A stretch of DNA of 64,000 nt from a virus (taxonomy: Duplodnaviria; Caudoviricetes): the IMG/VR virus record IMGVR_UViG_3300011989_000009, positions 28,786 to 92,785 of that record; one strand, 5' to 3'. The notes below the pieces were generated by a model that saw only the letters and a program-made list of their open reading frames with translations, was not told where the DNA came from and did not search any database. Each line of letters begins with the position of its first letter. The stretch's first letter is position 1. This document shows positions 21,950 through 48,003 of this stretch, one piece after another. A program made the position numbers and the translations under genes.

Positions 21950-22831
21950 TTAAAGTGTATACTCTGGTAATGTGATATGGAAATAATCTTCTAAAAACTT
22001 TTTGTAATCAACAGATTCTCCAAAGATACCCCCCCTAAATTCCTTTTGGGTCATCAACCATTGCTGATACTGATCGTATCTGTCGAAGAAAACGTTGGCA
22101 TAGAAATATTGATATACATTTCCATGATAGTTCTTGACGACATCAGAATCCTTATGTGACGACATAAACTTCCATGCCGCACGAAGATAAGCCTTCACCA
22201 TACCTGGATAGACTTTGAACTCAGCAAGACGACCTTTGTAATACTTCAACGGACAGCATATACAGCCCAAACGCCGGGAAATATCAACAGAACCATCCTC
22301 TCGATAATACAAAGGATGGAGCTTTATCTTGCGCTCATTGATGAAGTCAAGCTCGTCTTTATCCGTCCAGTCAAGAATGGGATATATAGCATTGGCATGC
22401 ACAGCCTTACTGCCATAGATACGGCATTCCGTTGGCTCTGAGTAGCGCTTATAGCGCTTGGTACTCTCACATCTACGAATCCCCATCACGACATTATCCA
22501 TCACCTTGTACTCTTTCAGCACTTCGCAACAGAAACGATGCCTACGATTAGGAAAGCCTTTGGCAGCAACTAAATGGAAGAAGGTCTCATTCTTGCGAAT
22601 GATCTTTGCTCCCTGTTCCTGTACATGCTTGATAGTGCCCGGCGGGTCTATAGTAGTGTTCTTGTATATGGCACGGTACTCTATCCCGCTCATTTTGGCA
22701 AGCTCCAATATAACATCAGAATCCTTGCCACCACTATAAGCTATCTCCAACGGCTCACCAGCAGCCTTGTAGCAAACTTGCAAGAGCTTAACAGCTTGCG
22801 AAACTTTCTTCTGTAAGTGTATATTCATCAT
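21950..22831 (-). CDS. PAPS reductase family protein
   Basis: YSGGKDS PP-loop, RFCCEVLK, GIRRCES, RLGCICCP; G7 tract at 22029-22035 near the 3' end. Confidence 0.88.
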   Translation of the reverse strand: MMNIHLQKKVSQAVKLLQVCYKAAGEPLEIAYSGGKDSDVILELAKMSGIEYRAIYKNTTIDPPGTIKHVQEQGAKIIRKNETFFHLVAAKGFPNRRHRFCCEVLKEYKVMDNVVMGIRRCESTKRYKRYSEPTECRIYGSKAVHANAIYPILDWTDKDELDFINERKIKLHPLYYREDGSVDISRRLGCICCPLKYYKGRLAEFKVYPGMVKAYLRAAWKFMSSHKDSDVVKNYHGNVYQYFYANVFFDRYDQYQQWLMTQKEFRGGIFGESVDYKKFLEDYFHITLPEYTL

Positions 22832-28431: not shown

Positions 28432-28743
28432 TGTCTCTTATGTTTATTATGTCTTTACTTGTTTTTCGTCTTGATTGATGACTACACCCCAAACTCAAAT
28501 TCGGCCATAGTTGGCCACTTGCTTTTGCGTTTCCGTTTTGGTTTGTTTTGCCCCCCCATTTACGTTGCGAGAGGTAACAAGGGCATCCTTCCCAAGGAAT
28601 GGCTGACAAACTCATACCATTGTAAATGCTTTTAGCGCAATGACATTCATCGTGGTAGTAATCCACGCAACCGATGCACTTCGGCTCGTAACCTGTTATT
28701 ATGCTTATTTTCTATCTCCTTATAATTTTGCCTGTATTCAGGA

Positions 28744-29052
28744 TTACATGATTTTCTTTCCCAACTTAATAACGAGTACATCTTTGTCTACCGGTGCGCC
28801 CCATTCCGTCTTACCACGTCCGACGGTCACGCTGTCAATCTCATACAGCGCACACACCGAACTATACCCACGATGGAACATGACGTATTTAATATTCTTA
28901 CCGAACCGACGCTGCCATGTATTGATGGCACGATATTCTTCCGTCTTCTCGCCACTGGCAATCATATCATACCATTTGTATTTCAGTACGAGATGCACCG
29001 TATTCGACACCGGCTTCTTCTTGGGCGTATAGATGATTTCCACAATCGACAT
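28744..29052 (-). CDS. ASCH/PUA-like domain protein
   Basis: HLVLKYKWYDMIASGEKTEEYR motif. Confidence 0.8.
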   Translation of the reverse strand: MSIVEIIYTPKKKPVSNTVHLVLKYKWYDMIASGEKTEEYRAINTWQRRFGKNIKYVMFHRGYSSVCALYEIDSVTVGRGKTEWGAPVDKDVLVIKLGKKIM

Positions 29053-34420: not shown

Positions 34421-34677
34421 ATACTTGGTTTTAAAGTTAATAACACGTCGGCAATATCGCCGACCGTCTTAATGTTTCCCAGTTGCTCTCTCGACACCTT
34501 TACTTTGAAGTGCGTCTCGACAACCAACACAATATCGATTTTGGCGAGAGAGTCAAAACCTAATTCCTCCAAGGTGGTGCTTTCTGTATGTTCCACCTTC
34601 TCTTCCGGCGCAAACTCCGGCTCCAGCCGTTGCAGAATGAGCTGGAAAAGATCATCTATCAATTCTGGACGTGTCAT
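34399..34677 (-). CDS. Acyl carrier protein
   Basis: LGFDSLAKID motif; ATG at 34677 overlaps the stop of module 12 (ATGA). Confidence 0.88.
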   Translation of the reverse strand: MTRPELIDDLFQLILQRLEPEFAPEEKVEHTESTTLEELGFDSLAKIDIVLVVETHFKVKVSREQLGNIKTVGDIADVLLTLKPSICDKTKE

Positions 34678-34817
34678 AATGTATATTCTATTAAAATACA
34701 ATGTGGGCACTTGAAGTCAGTACTCCGAAGCGAGGGAGAGATTGTTTTCCACCCCCCCCCAGATGATTGCCACTCAAAAGAATGACTGACTATGTTCACA
34801 CCCACTTTAAAGTTCAT
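34674..34817 (-). CDS. TRD-like module 12 (G9, in frame)
   Basis: MNFKVGVNIVSHSFEWQSSGGGWKTISPSLRSTDFKCPHCILIEYTL*; C9 at 34752-34760. Confidence 0.75.
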   Translation of the reverse strand: MNFKVGVNIVSHSFEWQSSGGGWKTISPSLRSTDFKCPHCILIEYTL

Positions 34818-34986
34818 ACTCTATAATGATTTTACCTACATGCGCAATCGTCAATGTTGCCATTGGATTACGCACGTTTATTAACTGCATCTCGCTTACC
34901 CCCCCCTGACGCTCATCACCCGTAAAAAAGCGAATATTGCCATTCGGAAGCCAATGAGCGAAGATGCCACATTTCCTTGCTTTCAT
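34807..34986 (-). CDS. TRD-like module 11 (G8, in frame)
   Basis: MKARKCGIFAHWLPNGNIRFFTGDERQGGVSEMQLINVRNPMATLTIAHVGKIIIEYEL*; C8 at 34899-34906. Confidence 0.75.
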   Translation of the reverse strand: MKARKCGIFAHWLPNGNIRFFTGDERQGGVSEMQLINVRNPMATLTIAHVGKIIIEYEL

Positions 34987-35124
34987 AATTCGTACTCTAT
35001 AAAAAGCATTGCATTTTTCTGACTGCTTGTAAGCGCATTCGAGAACGACACACTGCCAAGTTCAAGTTGCTGATACGTTTTACCACCCCCCCCTACCACG
35101 CAAAGCGCAACACATATATATCAT
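34983..35124 (-). pseudogene. TRD-like module 10 (G8, out of frame; G7/G10 restores)
   Basis: MIYMCCALRGRGG then TGG TAA; the restored frame gives ...GKTYQQLELGSVSFSNALTSSQKNAMLFIEYEL*; C8 at 35086-35093. Confidence 0.75.
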
Positions 35125-35274
35125 AGTTCATAATTTATTAATATTTTAGGTTTGTCAATATCATGGCCTTGCCCCCCCAATTACGGCAGGAGATATACCA
35201 AAACGAGAGACAACTATACCATTCTGAGAATGCGAATAATAGCCTAACTTTATCACATTTGATCTACACCTCAT
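35121..35274 (-). pseudogene. TRD-like module 9 (G7, out of frame; G6/G9 restores)
   Basis: MRCRSNVIKLGYYSHSQNGIVVSRFGISPAVIGG / QGHDIDKPKILINYEL*; C7 at 35172-35178. Confidence 0.75.
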
Positions 35275-35443
35275 ACTCAATCAATAATAAATTATCCATC
35301 AACGCAGCAGTGACTGTATGAGCATAGTCGAAAGACAAAAAAATATGTTCCGAACGCTTTCTCCGTACTCCACCATCTCCTAACATTTTTCGTTGTTGCT
35401 TATCATGCTCAGAGCGCCCTAAAGTCAAAAACTTATAGTTCAT
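35264..35443 (-). CDS. TRD-like module 8 (no G tract; T7, in frame)
   Basis: MNYKFLTLGRSEHDKQQRKMLGDGGVRRKRSEHIFLSFDYAHTVTAALMDNLLLIEYEV*; similar to module 6. Confidence 0.75.
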   Translation of the reverse strand: MNYKFLTLGRSEHDKQQRKMLGDGGVRRKRSEHIFLSFDYAHTVTAALMDNLLLIEYEV

Positions 35444-35446
35444 ATT

Positions 35447-35644
35447 CTACATAATATATTCCATTAATACAACCGTCTTCGGGAAATGTGCCAACGTGAC
35501 AATATCAGTAATCTCTGAGAGTCCGTCATACCGCGTGTTCAACGTACACGATACTCCACCGTTTGCAACATTCACGGGGATAGAATACCCCCCCCTAATA
35601 GGTTTTCCATCGGCACTGGTAGTGTAAGCTAAATCATAAGTCAT
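35447..35644 (-). CDS. TRD-like module 7 (G8, in frame)
   Basis: MTYDLAYTT...IRGGYSIPVNVANGGVSCTLNTRY...LAHFPKTVVLMEYIM*; C8 at 35588-35595; paralogue of module 1. Confidence 0.8.
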   Translation of the reverse strand: MTYDLAYTTSADGKPIRGGYSIPVNVANGGVSCTLNTRYDGLSEITDIVTLAHFPKTVVLMEYIM

Positions 35645-35816
35645 ATTCAATCAATAACAGATTGTCTTTCTGAACGCTATCAATAGTATTAGCGATCATA
35701 CCCCCCCCTACGTAAACGTGCATGTTAAAATGCACTTTACCGGAATTGTCACCCCACAAGCGACGGATATGTTTGGCTAATGCACTGCGACAAGGTCTTA
35801 ATATCGACTGGTTCAT
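35634..35816 (-). CDS. TRD-like module 6 (G8, in frame)
   Basis: ...YVGGGMIANTIDSVQKDNLLLIEYDL*; C8 at 35701-35708. Confidence 0.8.
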   Translation of the reverse strand: MNQSILRPCRSALAKHIRRLWGDNSGKVHFNMHVYVGGGMIANTIDSVQKDNLLLIEYDL

Positions 35817-37217
35817 TTCGTAAGAGCTTATTTACTTCAAAGATAATACGAGGTTTCTCTACCGTCTGATTATACTGATACAGCTCAGCGATAGCCTTAT
35901 CATCATTTACCTTCATCAGTTTTTCAAGATCAGACTTTGCATAAGCGTGCGTTTTTATCAGCTCGGCCATCTCGTCAGGAACAACACGATATTCAGCCTT
36001 CTCTTTCTGATTACGCGACAAAAATGCTATCACGCTTTCTGGTTTTAAGAAGTAAGTGTCAGCGACATTCTCCTGCAAAATATCGGCGATACACTTCTCC
36101 AATTTGAAAGGTTTAGGAAACTGATACTGTTCCTTGCACACATCGTCACGCACCGACACCATGAAAACTCTCGCACGATTTTTGGGTACACCATAATTTT
36201 TTGCATTGAGAATCTGATAATAGCTATGATAACCACAAGCCTTGACGGTATTATACCACTCCACAAAGTCCGGCCAATTCGTCGAGTCAATCAAAGCTGC
36301 CACATTCTCCTGCAATAAAAAATTTGGCTTTAATGCACGGATAGCGTTTTCGGTGCTCCAAAGAACAGCAGAGCGAGTACCACTTCCTTTCTTGATTCCT
36401 GCGCGCTTCCCCGCAACAGAGATTGATTGACAAGGTGTAGAATAAGTCAGCAAATCAACACCTTCTCCGACATCAATCTTGCTCCAGTCCGCCGTTGTCA
36501 TATCACCTACGTTTCTATCTGCCCATTGAGGGAAGTTCAAATTGTGAGCTTTTACGGCAGGCTGATTTTCGAGCTTTGCTTTGCTCTCTGGATCAAACTC
36601 AGCCCAAGCCTTCAACTCATAATCGAATTTTTTACCTTGCAAAGACGCAAAATTGTGCAGCATCTCCATAGCAATCATCTGAGAATCATAGCCGGAACAC
36701 AGCGTCACCACGTTGATTTTCTTTGGTAATGGCACATCCCAACGTGAGCCGTAATCAAAAATAGAAAATTGTGAACCCGTTGTCGGCTCATACATCCAAA
36801 TATTCTTATAGATGTAAAACAGCACATCGCAGACGATACTGTTCCCTGCAAGTTTATAGCAGGCTGATTTACTGAGAGTGCTCGGATTATCCGTCATTCT
36901 GGCAATATAGTTATCCGGCACGCCCATCAAACGAAAACACTCTACGGGCGTGAGCTTACGAATATCAAACAAACGCGGGTCGGCGTTAGGGATGAATTTT
37001 GCTATCATAGTTCTTTGTAAATCTTTATCAAAACACGAGTCTAAAATTGGTACGGAAACGAAATAATGATTGCTGGAGGAAATACGAGTTGTCAATGTGC
37101 CATATATCTCGTCACTGACAATACCGTTATAGGCGTCTACCCAGAGATAGGGCTTATCTATTACCCCCCCCTAATCATGCGATTGATACGACTTGAATAA
37201 GTTCTGTTATAAGGCAT
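35749..37217 (-). CDS. Circularly permuted C5-cytosine DNA methyltransferase with N-terminal TRD-like module 5; G8 tract currently out of frame
   Basis: Motif order IX (RKLTPVECFRLMG), X (YKLAGNSI), I (TLCSGYDSQ), IV (STPCQ), VI (QENV), VIII (PKNRARVF). ATG 37217 reads MPYNRTYSSRINRMIRGG-TAA at C8 37164-37171; G9 or G6 joins it to the 35749-37095 ORF. Confidence 0.88.
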
Positions 37218-37371
37218 ACTCTACTAAAATGTTAGGAACAAATCCACCCCCCCCCGCATAGTTAAACACGGTGGCAGCAATGCCGTTTGCAAAATAGATT
37301 CTGTCTCGTTGGGCATTATTCCTATGATGTTCTTTGATATGCCCTATTTGAATGATTCTGTCATATTTCAT
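37207..37371 (-). CDS. TRD-like module 4 (G9, in frame)
   Basis: MKYDRIIQIGHIKEHHRNNAQRDRIYFANGIAATVFNYAGGGGFVPNILVEYAL*; C9 at 37247-37255. Confidence 0.8.
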   Translation of the reverse strand: MKYDRIIQIGHIKEHHRNNAQRDRIYFANGIAATVFNYAGGGGFVPNILVEYAL

Positions 37372-37534
37372 AAACGACCATTATTCCTGTCTCATTAAAT
37401 CCGTCATTTCTTTTTAAAACGAAGTTGGCTCCACAAGCCTTGTAATATACGGACCGCAAAGACATTGCCGTGCCGTCAGTACTTACGCTTATCGGAAGTT
37501 CATGCCCCCCCCGTATGAGGTGCTTATAATTCAT
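37361..37534 (-). CDS. TRD-like module 3 (G8, in frame)
   Basis: MNYKHLIRGGHELPISVSTDGTAMSLRSVYYKACGANFVLKRNDGFNETGIMVVYEI*; C8 at 37505-37512. Confidence 0.75.
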   Translation of the reverse strand: MNYKHLIRGGHELPISVSTDGTAMSLRSVYYKACGANFVLKRNDGFNETGIMVVYEI

Positions 37535-37680
37535 ATTCTATTCTTACATGTGGCGTTGTTACTCCTTTATACCCTCCCCCCACAGAAAGACGTTATCGTA
37601 TTGCAAATATCCTTAAAATGGTACTTGCTTACGCTTCCGTCTTTGCTATGGCGAGTCCAGCCTACAAACTTATAAATCAT
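37524..37680 (-). pseudogene. TRD-like module 2 (G6, out of frame; G5/G8 restores)
   Basis: MIYKFVGWTRHSKDGSVSKYHFKDICNTITSFCG / GGYKGVTTPHVRIEYEL*; C6 at 37576-37581. Confidence 0.75.
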
Positions 37681-37861
37681 ATTCAAACAACACAACCGTC
37701 ATAGGATAATGGGCAAGCGTTATAATATTGTTACAACCGATTGCCTCATATCTTGTATTGAGTGTGCAGGCAAGCCCACCGTTGGCGGTATTAACGGGTT
37801 GATGATACCCCCCCCTAACAGACTTGCCCGGACACGTTGTGGTTAAAGACAGTTTCAACAT
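37670..37861 (-). CDS. TRD-like module 1 (G8, in frame)
   Basis: ...VRGGYHQPVNTANGGLACTLNTRY...LAHYPMTVVLFEYDL*; C8 at 37808-37815. Confidence 0.8.
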   Translation of the reverse strand: MLKLSLTTTCPGKSVRGGYHQPVNTANGGLACTLNTRYEAIGCNNIITLAHYPMTVVLFEYDL

Positions 37862-37862
37862 T

Positions 37863-39008
37863 CTACGCTTCCACTATCAGCGGCATGACGAGGCCGGTGT
37901 AGGGCGATGTCGTCTCGTCGTGCATGATGATAGCACGGGACGGCTCACCAAACTCCATACGCACATTGTCGGAAGAGACGAAATCGAGCATCTTGCGGAG
38001 ATTGTCGTAGCGCATACCAATCTTGTAACCGTCGGGAAGGTTGCAGGCGTCCTCGACATCGGCGAGCGGAAGATTTTCCTTTGCCTCATGGTTAAAGTCG
38101 AGGTCGATGGATGAGAGGTAGAACTGACCCTTCTCGCAAGAGAGCGTCACCATGCACGAGGCGATACTGGCCATGACCGCCACACGTGAGATACTTTCTT
38201 TCAGCGACTTCACGGGCATGATGACGTGATAATCATTGTCGGTAGGGATCGCCGCATTGTAGTTAGGATATTTGCCCTCAATGGTACGGATCGTGAAGCA
38301 GGTGCCACCAGAGATAATCTCCATACCGTTGTTGTCAGCTTGTATCAGCACCGTCTCGGCACCGGCAAAAGGCGCGGTCAATGCTGATACCACAGCACCA
38401 GGCATTAAGAGCTCAGTAGGAGCACCAGACTTCAAGAAGGGCACGCCATGGCTGTAGACGTACTTATAAAGCGTCCTACCATCGGATGAAACGAAGACGA
38501 CACCCTCATTGGTGACATCCAGACATACCGCATTCATCACGGGGCGTATCACGTTATGATCGGTACTCTGAGCGGCATCCTTGCAACAGGAAAGCAGCAC
38601 GTCCGTGGGCAGTTCAAACGAGACCTTCGGCGCGTTCATCGGCTGCGTGCGCGGGAAGTCATCGGCAGACTGGATCGTTATCCGTACCTCACCACCCTGA
38701 TAGCTGATACGCGCCGTGGTGAGCTTATTGTCAATCTCGAACGTCAGCGGCTGTTCCGGCAGTGCACTGATGAACGATGACACCAGATTAGGGTTGATGC
38801 AGAACGGTTTGAAATCACCCTCCAGCATGGTCAGCGCCAAGGGCATGACGAGCGTATTCTCCTGCGAGGACGAGGTAGCCGTGAAAGCGTCACCGTTCTG
38901 TGTCACGAGGACATTTTCGAGAACGGCAATAGCGTTTTTCTTTAAGATGACCTTCATCAGCGCGTTCAGCACACGAAGCAGGTCGGTACGAGAAACATTG
39001 AATTTCAT
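37863..39008 (-). CDS. dnaN: DNA polymerase III beta sliding clamp
   Basis: MKFNVSR..., DDFP, RPVMNAV, SSDGRTL, IEGKYPNY, terminal LVMPL. Confidence 0.93.
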   Translation of the reverse strand: MKFNVSRTDLLRVLNALMKVILKKNAIAVLENVLVTQNGDAFTATSSSQENTLVMPLALTMLEGDFKPFCINPNLVSSFISALPEQPLTFEIDNKLTTARISYQGGEVRITIQSADDFPRTQPMNAPKVSFELPTDVLLSCCKDAAQSTDHNVIRPVMNAVCLDVTNEGVVFVSSDGRTLYKYVYSHGVPFLKSGAPTELLMPGAVVSALTAPFAGAETVLIQADNNGMEIISGGTCFTIRTIEGKYPNYNAAIPTDNDYHVIMPVKSLKESISRVAVMASIASCMVTLSCEKGQFYLSSIDLDFNHEAKENLPLADVEDACNLPDGYKIGMRYDNLRKMLDFVSSDNVRMEFGEPSRAIIMHDETTSPYTGLVMPLIVEA

Positions 39009-47233: not shown

Positions 47234-48003
47234 AAGATTTATTTGATATGGATCCCGTTGCGCAATATGATAAAAGCGTACACGCAAAAAACGGCAGAGC
47301 GAGAGTCTTCAAGACGCTTGGAGCCAGCAATCACACCGAACAAGACAGAGGAGCTTTCGATTATTATGCTACGGAACCAAAAGCTACGGAACTGTTATTG
47401 AAATTAGAACATTTCAACAATAACATTCTTGAACCATGCTGTGGAGAAGGGCATATTAGTGAAGTACTGAAACGGGGGAGACTGTCCGAGAACTCCCGAA
47501 GAGGTGTCAAACTGTCATCAGAACATAGTTCTTTGAAGAAGTGTGCACCTTGCGTTAAATCGAACGTTTTACGATCAACAATTAAGCCGCAATCTAGTTC
47601 TCGGACGGCCTGGGGGGGGTATCACGTTACATCACGTGACCTTATCAATCACGGATATGGTGAACAAGCTGACTTTCTTGATATGGCCAACACAGAATGG
47701 AACGGAGATATTATCACCAATCCACCTTATGCACTGGCTAAAGAGTTTGTTGAAAAAGCGATAAGAATCATACCACGAGGGAACAAAGTAGCTATGTTTC
47801 TCAAACTCACATTCCTTGAAGGAAAGCAAAGACGTGAACTTTTCCGGATTTTTCCTCCTATCCGTGTATGGGTGTCTTCCTCCCGTCTTGCGTGCGCCAT
47901 GAATGGAGACTTTGAAAAATACTCCGGTTCTGCTACCGCCTACGCATGGTTCATTTGGCAAAAGGGATTTAAAGGCGACCCAATTATAAAATGGTTTAAT
48001 TAA
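47230..48003 (+). CDS. Amino (N6A/N4C) DNA methyltransferase with in-frame 46-codon insertion and G8 tract
   Basis: DYYATE, motif I ILEPCCGEG, motif IV IITNPPY, LKLTFLEG. Confidence 0.88.
   Translation: MKDLFDMDPVAQYDKSVHAKNGRARVFKTLGASNHTEQDRGAFDYYATEPKATELLLKLEHFNNNILEPCCGEGHISEVLKRGRLSENSRRGVKLSSEHSSLKKCAPCVKSNVLRSTIKPQSSSRTAWGGYHVTSRDLINHGYGEQADFLDMANTEWNGDIITNPPYALAKEFVEKAIRIIPRGNKVAMFLKLTFLEGKQRRELFRIFPPIRVWVSSSRLACAMNGDFEKYSGSATAYAWFIWQKGFKGDPIIKWFN
47479..47611. mobile_element. 133-bp MITE-like insertion
   Basis: Ends AGACTGTCCGAGAACT and AGTTCTCGGACGGCCT (14/16 inverted match), flanked by GGGGG on both sides (5-bp target duplication). Confidence 0.75.

Follow-up and report, generated by a model that had tools for sequence, protein, structure and literature searches.

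A window of 64,000 nucleotides (nt), the whole stretch of DNA that was analysed (positions 28,786 to 92,785 of the virus record IMGVR_UViG_3300011989_000009), carries on its minus strand 12 tightly packed units, consisting of 11 mini open reading frames (ORFs) of 47-65 codons and, as unit five (U5), the core of a C5 cytosine DNA methyltransferase. The mini-ORFs have a short C-terminal tail in common, in which a hydrophobic strand is followed, in most units, by Glu-Tyr and a stop two residues later. With slightly better than even confidence, we interpret the array as one coupled operon in which a circularly permuted core is accompanied by 11 stand-alone target recognition domain (TRD) subunits of 47-65 amino acids (aa), and the tail is their common adaptor end. 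A bolder proposal, which we put forward tentatively, gives this tail three roles at once, as a universal plug by which more than ten unrelated TRDs would dock on a TRD-less permuted core, as the start of the next gene and as a crossover point for cassettes, in a manner similar to HsdS subunits.

The tails were read from a three-frame, stop-to-stop translation of the minus strand. All 11 tails listed in an initial annotation of this DNA were recovered, in the order U1, U2, U3, U4 and U6-U12, between positions 34674 and 37693 of the minus strand. A strict pattern (three hydrophobic residues, then Glu, Asn or Val, Tyr, any residue, a hydrophobic residue and a stop) matched 10 of the 11, U2 alone being missed due to Arg at position 2, and had no further match in the 64-kb window, all six frames considered. 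In 200 shuffles the pattern was matched 0.1 times on average and twice at maximum; the 11 tails of the array lie within 3.2 kb.

On the DNA level, the annotation had given ATAGA(A/G)TATGA as the approximate junction sequence. The core of this consensus, GA(A/G)TATGA, was present at 6 of the 11 junctions and the full form at just 2, the junction thus being looser than claimed. The ATG within this sequence had also been said to often start the next module, and this was the case for 7 of the 11 tails: bases 2-3 of the Tyr codon together with the following G start U2, U3, U4, U5, U7, U9 and U12. The remaining starts are ATGA stop/start overlaps (U10, U11 and the acyl-carrier-protein (ACP) gene that follows the array) and, for U8, an ATG 3 nt past the preceding stop. 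The units are listed below; ON and OFF denote units that are in frame or out of frame in this DNA, and G7 to G9 are tracts of seven to nine G.

U1, 37670..37861, minus strand: free module, ON; G8 at 37808-37815; tail 37670-37693; family A (CTLNTRY type).
U2, 37524..37680, minus strand: free module, OFF at the interrupted tract G6AGGG; ATG at 37680-37678 within the Tyr codon of the U1 tail.
U2 tail, 37524-37547, minus strand: in another frame than the U2 start; family C, which is fused to the core in P0016 and L006.
U3, 37361..37534, minus strand: free module, ON; G8 at 37505-37512; start in the Tyr codon of the U2 tail.
U3 tail, 37361-37384, minus strand: Val replaces Glu.
U4, 37207..37371, minus strand: free module, ON; G9 at 37247-37255; tail 37207-37230; the body resembles the two recognition loops of M.HhaI.
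U5, 35749..37217, minus strand: core of a circularly permuted C5 methyltransferase, to which a recognition part of its own is fused; ATG at 37217 in the Tyr codon of the U4 tail.
U5 tract, G8 at 37164-37171, minus strand: the start is out of frame, and G9 would restore the frame.
U5 internal Met of the MIAK motif, 37008-37006, minus strand: conserved.
U6, 35634..35816, minus strand: free module, ON; G8 at 35701-35708; tail 35634-35657.
U6 start, minus strand: in an overlap of 68 nt with the 3' end of the core, in another frame; it is thus away from any tail junction.
U7, 35447..35644, minus strand: free module, ON, paralogue of U1; G8 at 35588-35595; tail 35447-35470; start in the Tyr codon of the U6 tail.
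U8, 35264..35443, minus strand: free module, ON, with no G tract left; tail 35264-35287; start 3 nt past the U7 stop.
Orphan junction motif TAGAATATGAAC, 35438..35449, minus strand: between the U7 stop and U8, resembling a tail end but out of frame with the U7 tail; it may be a junction remnant brought in with the U8 cassette.
U9, 35121..35274, minus strand: free module, OFF at G7 (35172-35178); start in the Tyr codon of the U8 tail; family B (SQNG...KPKIL type).
U9 tail, 35121-35144, minus strand: Asn replaces Glu.
U10, 34983..35124, minus strand: free module, OFF at G8 (35086-35093); the probable start is the ATGA overlap with the U9 stop.
U10 tail, 34983-35006, minus strand: the Tyr codon is TAC.
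U11, 34807..34986, minus strand: free module, ON; G8 at 34899-34906; tail 34807-34830; start overlaps the U10 stop; family G (WLPNGN type).
U12, 34674..34817, minus strand: last free module, ON; G9 at 34752-34760; tail 34674-34697; stop overlaps the ATG of the ACP gene (34678-34676).

U5 was recognised as a C5 cytosine DNA methyltransferase by its match to PF00145 (E value 4.6e-48), and its translation shows the catalytic PCQ (motif IV), ENV (VI), QxRxR (VIII) and GNS (X). When a model of U5 was compared with known structures by Foldseek, M.MpeI and M.HhaI were the top matches (E 1e-14). The order of motifs is permuted in the ORF 37170-35749, where RKLTPxE/GNS (IX-X) precedes the SGYDSQ region, PCQS, ENV and NRAR (I-VIII). 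P0001, a cluster of 47 sequences, represents an in-frame allele of the core and is 99% identical to it. The Met of MIAK is invariant in all aligned core homologues and is the annotated start of many of them; in a core switched off by G8, as here, initiation at this Met (37008) could yield the TRD-less form that other phages encode outright.

Relatives were collected by a search with an alignment of core homologues, which gave 80 viral, 80 metagenome and 70 genome loci, a search with a single protein having found none. The form hhhEYxx-stop (h, hydrophobic; x, any residue) closes 128 distinct mini-ORFs, which are spread over 62 loci with a permuted core; the tail consensus is (P/T)(K/Y/V)(V/I)-L-I-E-Y-(D/E)-L. 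Their bodies sort into recurring families, i.e. A (U1/U7 type), B (U9), C (U2), G (U11) and others, so that the modules represent distinct TRD types and not random sequence. The bodies had been described as largely unrelated, which was overstated, since each belongs to a recognisable TRD family that recurs in other phages. The order of the families and the side of the core on which they stand vary between phages. Over whole mini-ORFs of six families the ratio of nonsynonymous to synonymous substitution rates (dN/dS) was 0.15-0.33. Two paralogous pairs had been proposed within the array; after removal of the tails U1 and U7 remained 57% identical over 54 aa (E 2e-22), with U3 as a distant relative of both, whereas the U6/U8 pair was weak (28%, with an E value of 4e-4 obtained in a tiny database).

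Relatives from the genome collection belong mostly to Prevotellaceae, Muribaculaceae and other Bacteroidales. An array of the same type is carried by a related 90-kb element (L188, the same as L058) on contig 204 of Prevotella sp. MGM1, a cultured-isolate assembly. A related but non-permuted design was seen at L021, L029, L046, L061 and similar loci, where a gene for motifs I-VIII is followed by an array of G-tract modules and then by a gene for a TRD plus motifs IX-X; the modules of these loci end in a hydrophobic strand, Tyr and an acidic run of variable length, without a fixed Glu-Tyr-x-h stop.

The hydrophobic and Glu codons of the tails vary synonymously. Among 68 tails from 14 non-redundant arrays, the next start lies within the Tyr codon in 51, and the Tyr codon is TAT in 61, compared with 61% in the long ORFs of this phage (p = 9e-8). 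The seven tails with TAC all lack an overlapping start, and four of them close an array; all seven retain Glu-Tyr and the hydrophobic C-terminus. Asp or Glu follows Tyr where the ATG needs a G, and Asn, Phe, Ile or Thr can follow elsewhere, but the Glu-Tyr pair does not relax in this way. Because the codons vary synonymously and terminal TAC modules without a next start keep Glu-Tyr, we conclude that selection acts on the tail as protein, with the start codon superimposed on it. Variant tails in which Tyr is changed to His (CAT) were observed in L012, L015, L093, L108, L111 and others; the overlapping ATG is retained in them and the Tyr is not.

The position of the tail relative to the core can be read from loci in which both are joined. 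Family C is found as a free module in U2, L013, L016 and L019 and fused to the core in P0016, L006 and L027. In the fused form the last strand is followed by a short linker, the invariant MIAK strand and then motif IX, and 5-16 residues separate the tail-equivalent strand from MIAK in fused relatives. At L100 (4325-6028) a family-A module is in frame with the core, so that the tail is followed by a 5-residue linker and MIAK, the usual stop codon being replaced; in L002 and L099 the module stop is in frame with MIAK. The free modules correspond to TRDs, as members of families C and A occupy the TRD position when fused (P0016, L006, L100) and a T-L type motif and a Gly-rich loop are present. From these sequence features the modules are predicted to be TRDs cut just before the first strand of the core, and to read DNA. 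At eight loci (L002, L012, L015, L090, L093, L099, L102, L108) the MIAK ATG lies -4 to +14 nt from a tail stop and no TRD is fused, so the cores of these loci have only the free modules for reading DNA. TRD-less cores that are this common would be hard to explain unless the modules work in trans.

The array contains 10 tracts of G7-G9 and one interrupted tract (G6AGGG), and overlapping matches to G7 were found 25 times in the window, compared with 3.2 expected by chance. Every G tract lies upstream of the tail of its own unit, as had been annotated, and here the frame is broken at the tract in U2, U9, U10 and the core U5, which lose the tail. Since all tracts are upstream of the tails, an off-frame allele ends before the adaptor. 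The tract of the core is G8 here and G9 in P0001, and between L016 and L017, whose arrays are 96.8% identical, tract lengths differ by 1-2 G at 6 of 12 positions. As in a contingency locus, an in-frame homopolymer tract varies in length between close relatives and the frame changes. The tract of the fused TRD of the core is located at a conserved Arg-Gly-Gly position even in cores that are only ~55% identical, which argues that the G tracts are maintained by selection. An assembly error as the source of the tracts was ruled out: the junction is independent of the tracts and recurs at 62 loci, and the tracts stand at conserved Gly-Gly in the ~55%-identical cores. The group of L003, L006, L007 and L027 has lost the majority of its G tracts to decay and carries a family-C module as a fusion with the core; in this lineage the array appears frozen or degenerating.

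For the analysis of breakpoints, arrays with at least 85% identity were compared and distinct rearrangements were grouped by hand. Four clean insertions or deletions were obtained:

L016-type (longer) versus L108/L111: 141 nt, one module; 15 nt common to both ends, GAATATGATTTATAA.
L027-type (longer) versus L006: 129 nt, one module; 7 nt common to both ends, TGAATAT.
L105 (longer) versus L102: about 190 nt, one module; TATGA common to both ends.
L014/L104 (longer) versus L099: 330-350 nt, core-proximal unit; 8-nt repeat common to both ends, directly after the tail stop.

In about 15 of about 24 distinct rearrangements at least one end lies within 20 nt of the Tyr codon of a tail, while the spacing of the tails would by itself give roughly one in four. 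These data show that junction-to-junction exchange happens and do not give its frequency. The suggestion that the junction serves as a micro-homology for cassette gain and loss was upheld to this extent, with the clean events ending in junction repeats of 5-15 nt, but the events took place in relatives and not in this phage.

According to the mechanism that we propose, the tail would be the last beta-strand of the TRD, the chain of a free module being cut just after this strand, and it would let unrelated TRD families present themselves to one core. Docking would most likely occur by strand complementation beside the N-terminus of the core. The next ATG would have settled in the Tyr codon (TATG), the tail being then Glu-Tyr plus a codon able to begin with G; the stop of each unit is found 8-10 nt beyond the start of the following one, and overlapping units may be translationally coupled. 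With the same 8-15 nt at every boundary, replication slippage or illegitimate recombination could add or remove whole modules while the neighbours stay intact, and the G tracts would turn single modules off by truncation ahead of the adaptor.

A docking role of the tail had been raised from the outset as a beta-strand that may bind the catalytic core. The tail is kept as protein across families and sits at the point where split and fused forms interconvert, both of which speak for this role, but the contact between tail and core is one that we infer. AlphaFold placed strands in P0001 at the tail-equivalent position (residues 50-54) and at MIAK (71-75). Several observations count against the adaptor interpretation. 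The confidence of the P0001 model, given as the predicted local distance difference test (pLDDT), averaged 36 over residues 51-60 compared with 83 for the whole model, and in the natural fusion L100 the module part (residues 1-49) remained unmodelled with a pLDDT below 35. The window's own fused TRD reads HYFVSV at the equivalent strand, without Glu-Tyr, so the fold as such can do without this pair. With M.SssI, little or no complementation was seen between fragment pairs that were split in the distal variable region (PMC3404938), so that assembly in trans at this site is not automatic; given such poor complementation, a dedicated adaptor would make sense. An enrichment of breakpoints at junctions would also be expected from selection for intact units. 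Finally, no near-identical relative of this array was found in the metagenome scan (best match 69%, at the core), so no rearrangement of the array itself was seen.

Some of the same observations would also fit a tail that is merely the structurally required last strand of the TRD, needed for folding, with the core bound by other surfaces and the start overlap and recombination arising as by-products. In fused relatives a hydrophobic strand does stand at the equivalent place, in many cases with Glu after it (...VCEER, ...VIEER), so the strand predates the split, and in the AlphaFold runs on P0001 and L100 the TRD part was of low confidence or unmodelled. We nevertheless regard this explanation as unlikely, because the stop two residues past Tyr and the hydrophobic C-terminus are kept in 128 ORFs of unrelated families, whereas the fused forms vary freely there, and because split and fused forms interconvert exactly at this point, which places the C-terminus beside the N-terminus of the core. 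A clearly less probable view is that the mini-ORFs are silent or decaying cassettes that become active only once recombined with or fused at the core, the junction being a recombination site. The junction-to-junction insertions and deletions, the natural in-frame fusion, and the L003/L027 group with its decayed G tracts and fused module would be expected in this case. However, each family keeps its own N-terminus from the junction ATG, dN/dS over whole ORFs is 0.15-0.33, 8 of the 11 free modules are in frame here, and modules stand on both sides of the core; moreover, the eight loci with a TRD-less core have no TRD at an expression site, and G tracts kept at GG codons make sense only if the ORFs are read.

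Conservation at the nucleotide or RNA level only, with the tail as a re-initiation or ribosome-loading signal and an incidental amino-acid pattern, seems very improbable to us. It would account for the next ATG in 51 of 68 tails, the enrichment of TAT, the retention of the ATG in Tyr-to-His variants and the recurrence of GA(A/G)TATGA. Yet only ~8 nt are common to the junctions while the three hydrophobic codons vary freely, terminal TAC modules keep the tail with no start downstream, and the residue after Tyr relaxes solely at places that require no start, which Glu and Tyr do not do. The next unit always stands in the +1 frame relative to the tail, as it would if ribosomes shifted by +1 at each junction and produced a multi-TRD polyprotein like the Bacillus phage enzymes. 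The efficiency of such shifts would, however, multiply down over 11 junctions, and the starts are conserved ATGs, which makes this the least credible of the explanations considered. The frameshift polyprotein was rejected as no slippery site is present, the pre-stop codon being variable (TTA, TTG, CTA, CTT, ATA, ATT, ATG, GTG, TTT and others).

C5 methyltransferases are textbook single-chain enzymes with a built-in specificity. In the multispecific enzymes of Bacillus phages (M.SPRI, M.Phi3TI and M.Rho11sI, studied in the Trautner laboratory), tandem TRDs are located in one polypeptide between motifs VIII and IX. Like the M.SPRI type, the present system belongs to a phage and would combine one catalytic core with short exchangeable TRDs (~40-60 aa, one specificity each) for protection from host restriction. 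Unlike in the M.SPRI type, the TRDs are here separate ORFs that share a tail and each have a start, a stop and a G tract of their own, and they accompany a permuted core; instead of the tandem TRDs of SPR-type enzymes, each module is closed by a stop codon and the module after it lies in the +1 frame. Cuts in the variable region, whether by natural splitting or by circular permutation, are tolerated by C5 methyltransferases (PMC3404938, PMC5944983). Split M.AquI and M.EcoHK31I and the fragments of M.SssI and M.BspRI (PMC3404938) likewise consist of separate polypeptides cut in or near the variable region. M.AquI and M.EcoHK31I, however, have two fixed subunits that each carry catalytic motifs, in contrast to the many alternative small subunits with a common adaptor tail proposed here. 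No Pfam family was matched by the free modules, which stop short of MIAK and motif IX, and catalytic motifs on both polypeptides, as in the M.AquI type, were not found. The core has the permutation of the M.BssHII type: as in M.BssHII, M.Alw26I, M2.Eco31I and M.Esp3I (PMC5944983), motifs IX-X stand before I-VIII and the permutation point is in the variable region. Those enzymes are single chains with one built-in TRD, whereas in the present family many cores begin only beyond the TRD, at MIAK.

The nearest functional analogue would be the HsdS subunits and shufflons of Type I restriction-modification systems (PMC7672463), in which variable domains that read DNA are linked to conserved segments; these segments bind the methylase and serve as crossover points by which specificities are reassorted, and phase variation is common. 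HsdS belongs to an unrelated protein family, directs adenine methylation, has coiled-coil conserved regions and is exchanged by invertases or longer repeats; what the units have in common here is a strand of 7 residues and 8-15 nt. Repeat-tract switches on DNA-modification genes were reported in 2025 as a means by which phages hedge between restriction systems (PMC12633550). The present tracts resemble the repeat tract of T2/T4 agt (PMC12633550) and bacterial phasevarions in being homopolymer tracts in DNA-modification genes that may act as a reversible on/off bet-hedge, but agt is a single gene, whereas here 10-12 independent tracts would each gate one module ahead of its tail. The literature searched contained no description of stand-alone TRD genes for C5 methylases, nor of their tail.

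If the modules act in trans via the tail, they would form a plug-in specificity system, the first natural one for cytosine-5 methylation, and would open a route to programmable methylases with one core and swappable 50-residue readers. Together with a G-tract switch for each module, it would give the phage a combinatorial and evolvable methylation repertoire. The junction would then be one short element constrained jointly by protein docking, translation initiation and recombination, and this triple constraint would account for the reshuffling of anti-restriction repertoires in phages of gut and rumen Bacteroidales. The natural fusion L100 offers a ready-made fused control, and the element in Prevotella sp. 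MGM1 a tractable system as well as a clue to the host.

The window is part of a 92.8-kb virus record that was judged 95% complete. The array is flanked by a sliding-clamp gene (37863-39008) and by an ACP/ketoacyl-synthase gene pair. The ATG of U1 lies 1 nt past the sliding-clamp stop (37859-37865), and the stop of U12 overlaps the ATG of the ACP gene as ATGA (34674-34678). Because the array is coupled to both neighbouring genes, it lies inside a longer minus-strand operon; a scan of the array for sigma-70 promoters and terminators gave nothing above chance. A blastn search of phage GenBank records with the array gave no match. The host of the ~93-kb phage is probably a member of the Bacteroidales. 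Outside the array, further G7-G8 tracts were seen in the window at 47612-47619 on the plus strand and at 28551-28557 and 22029-22035 on the minus strand.

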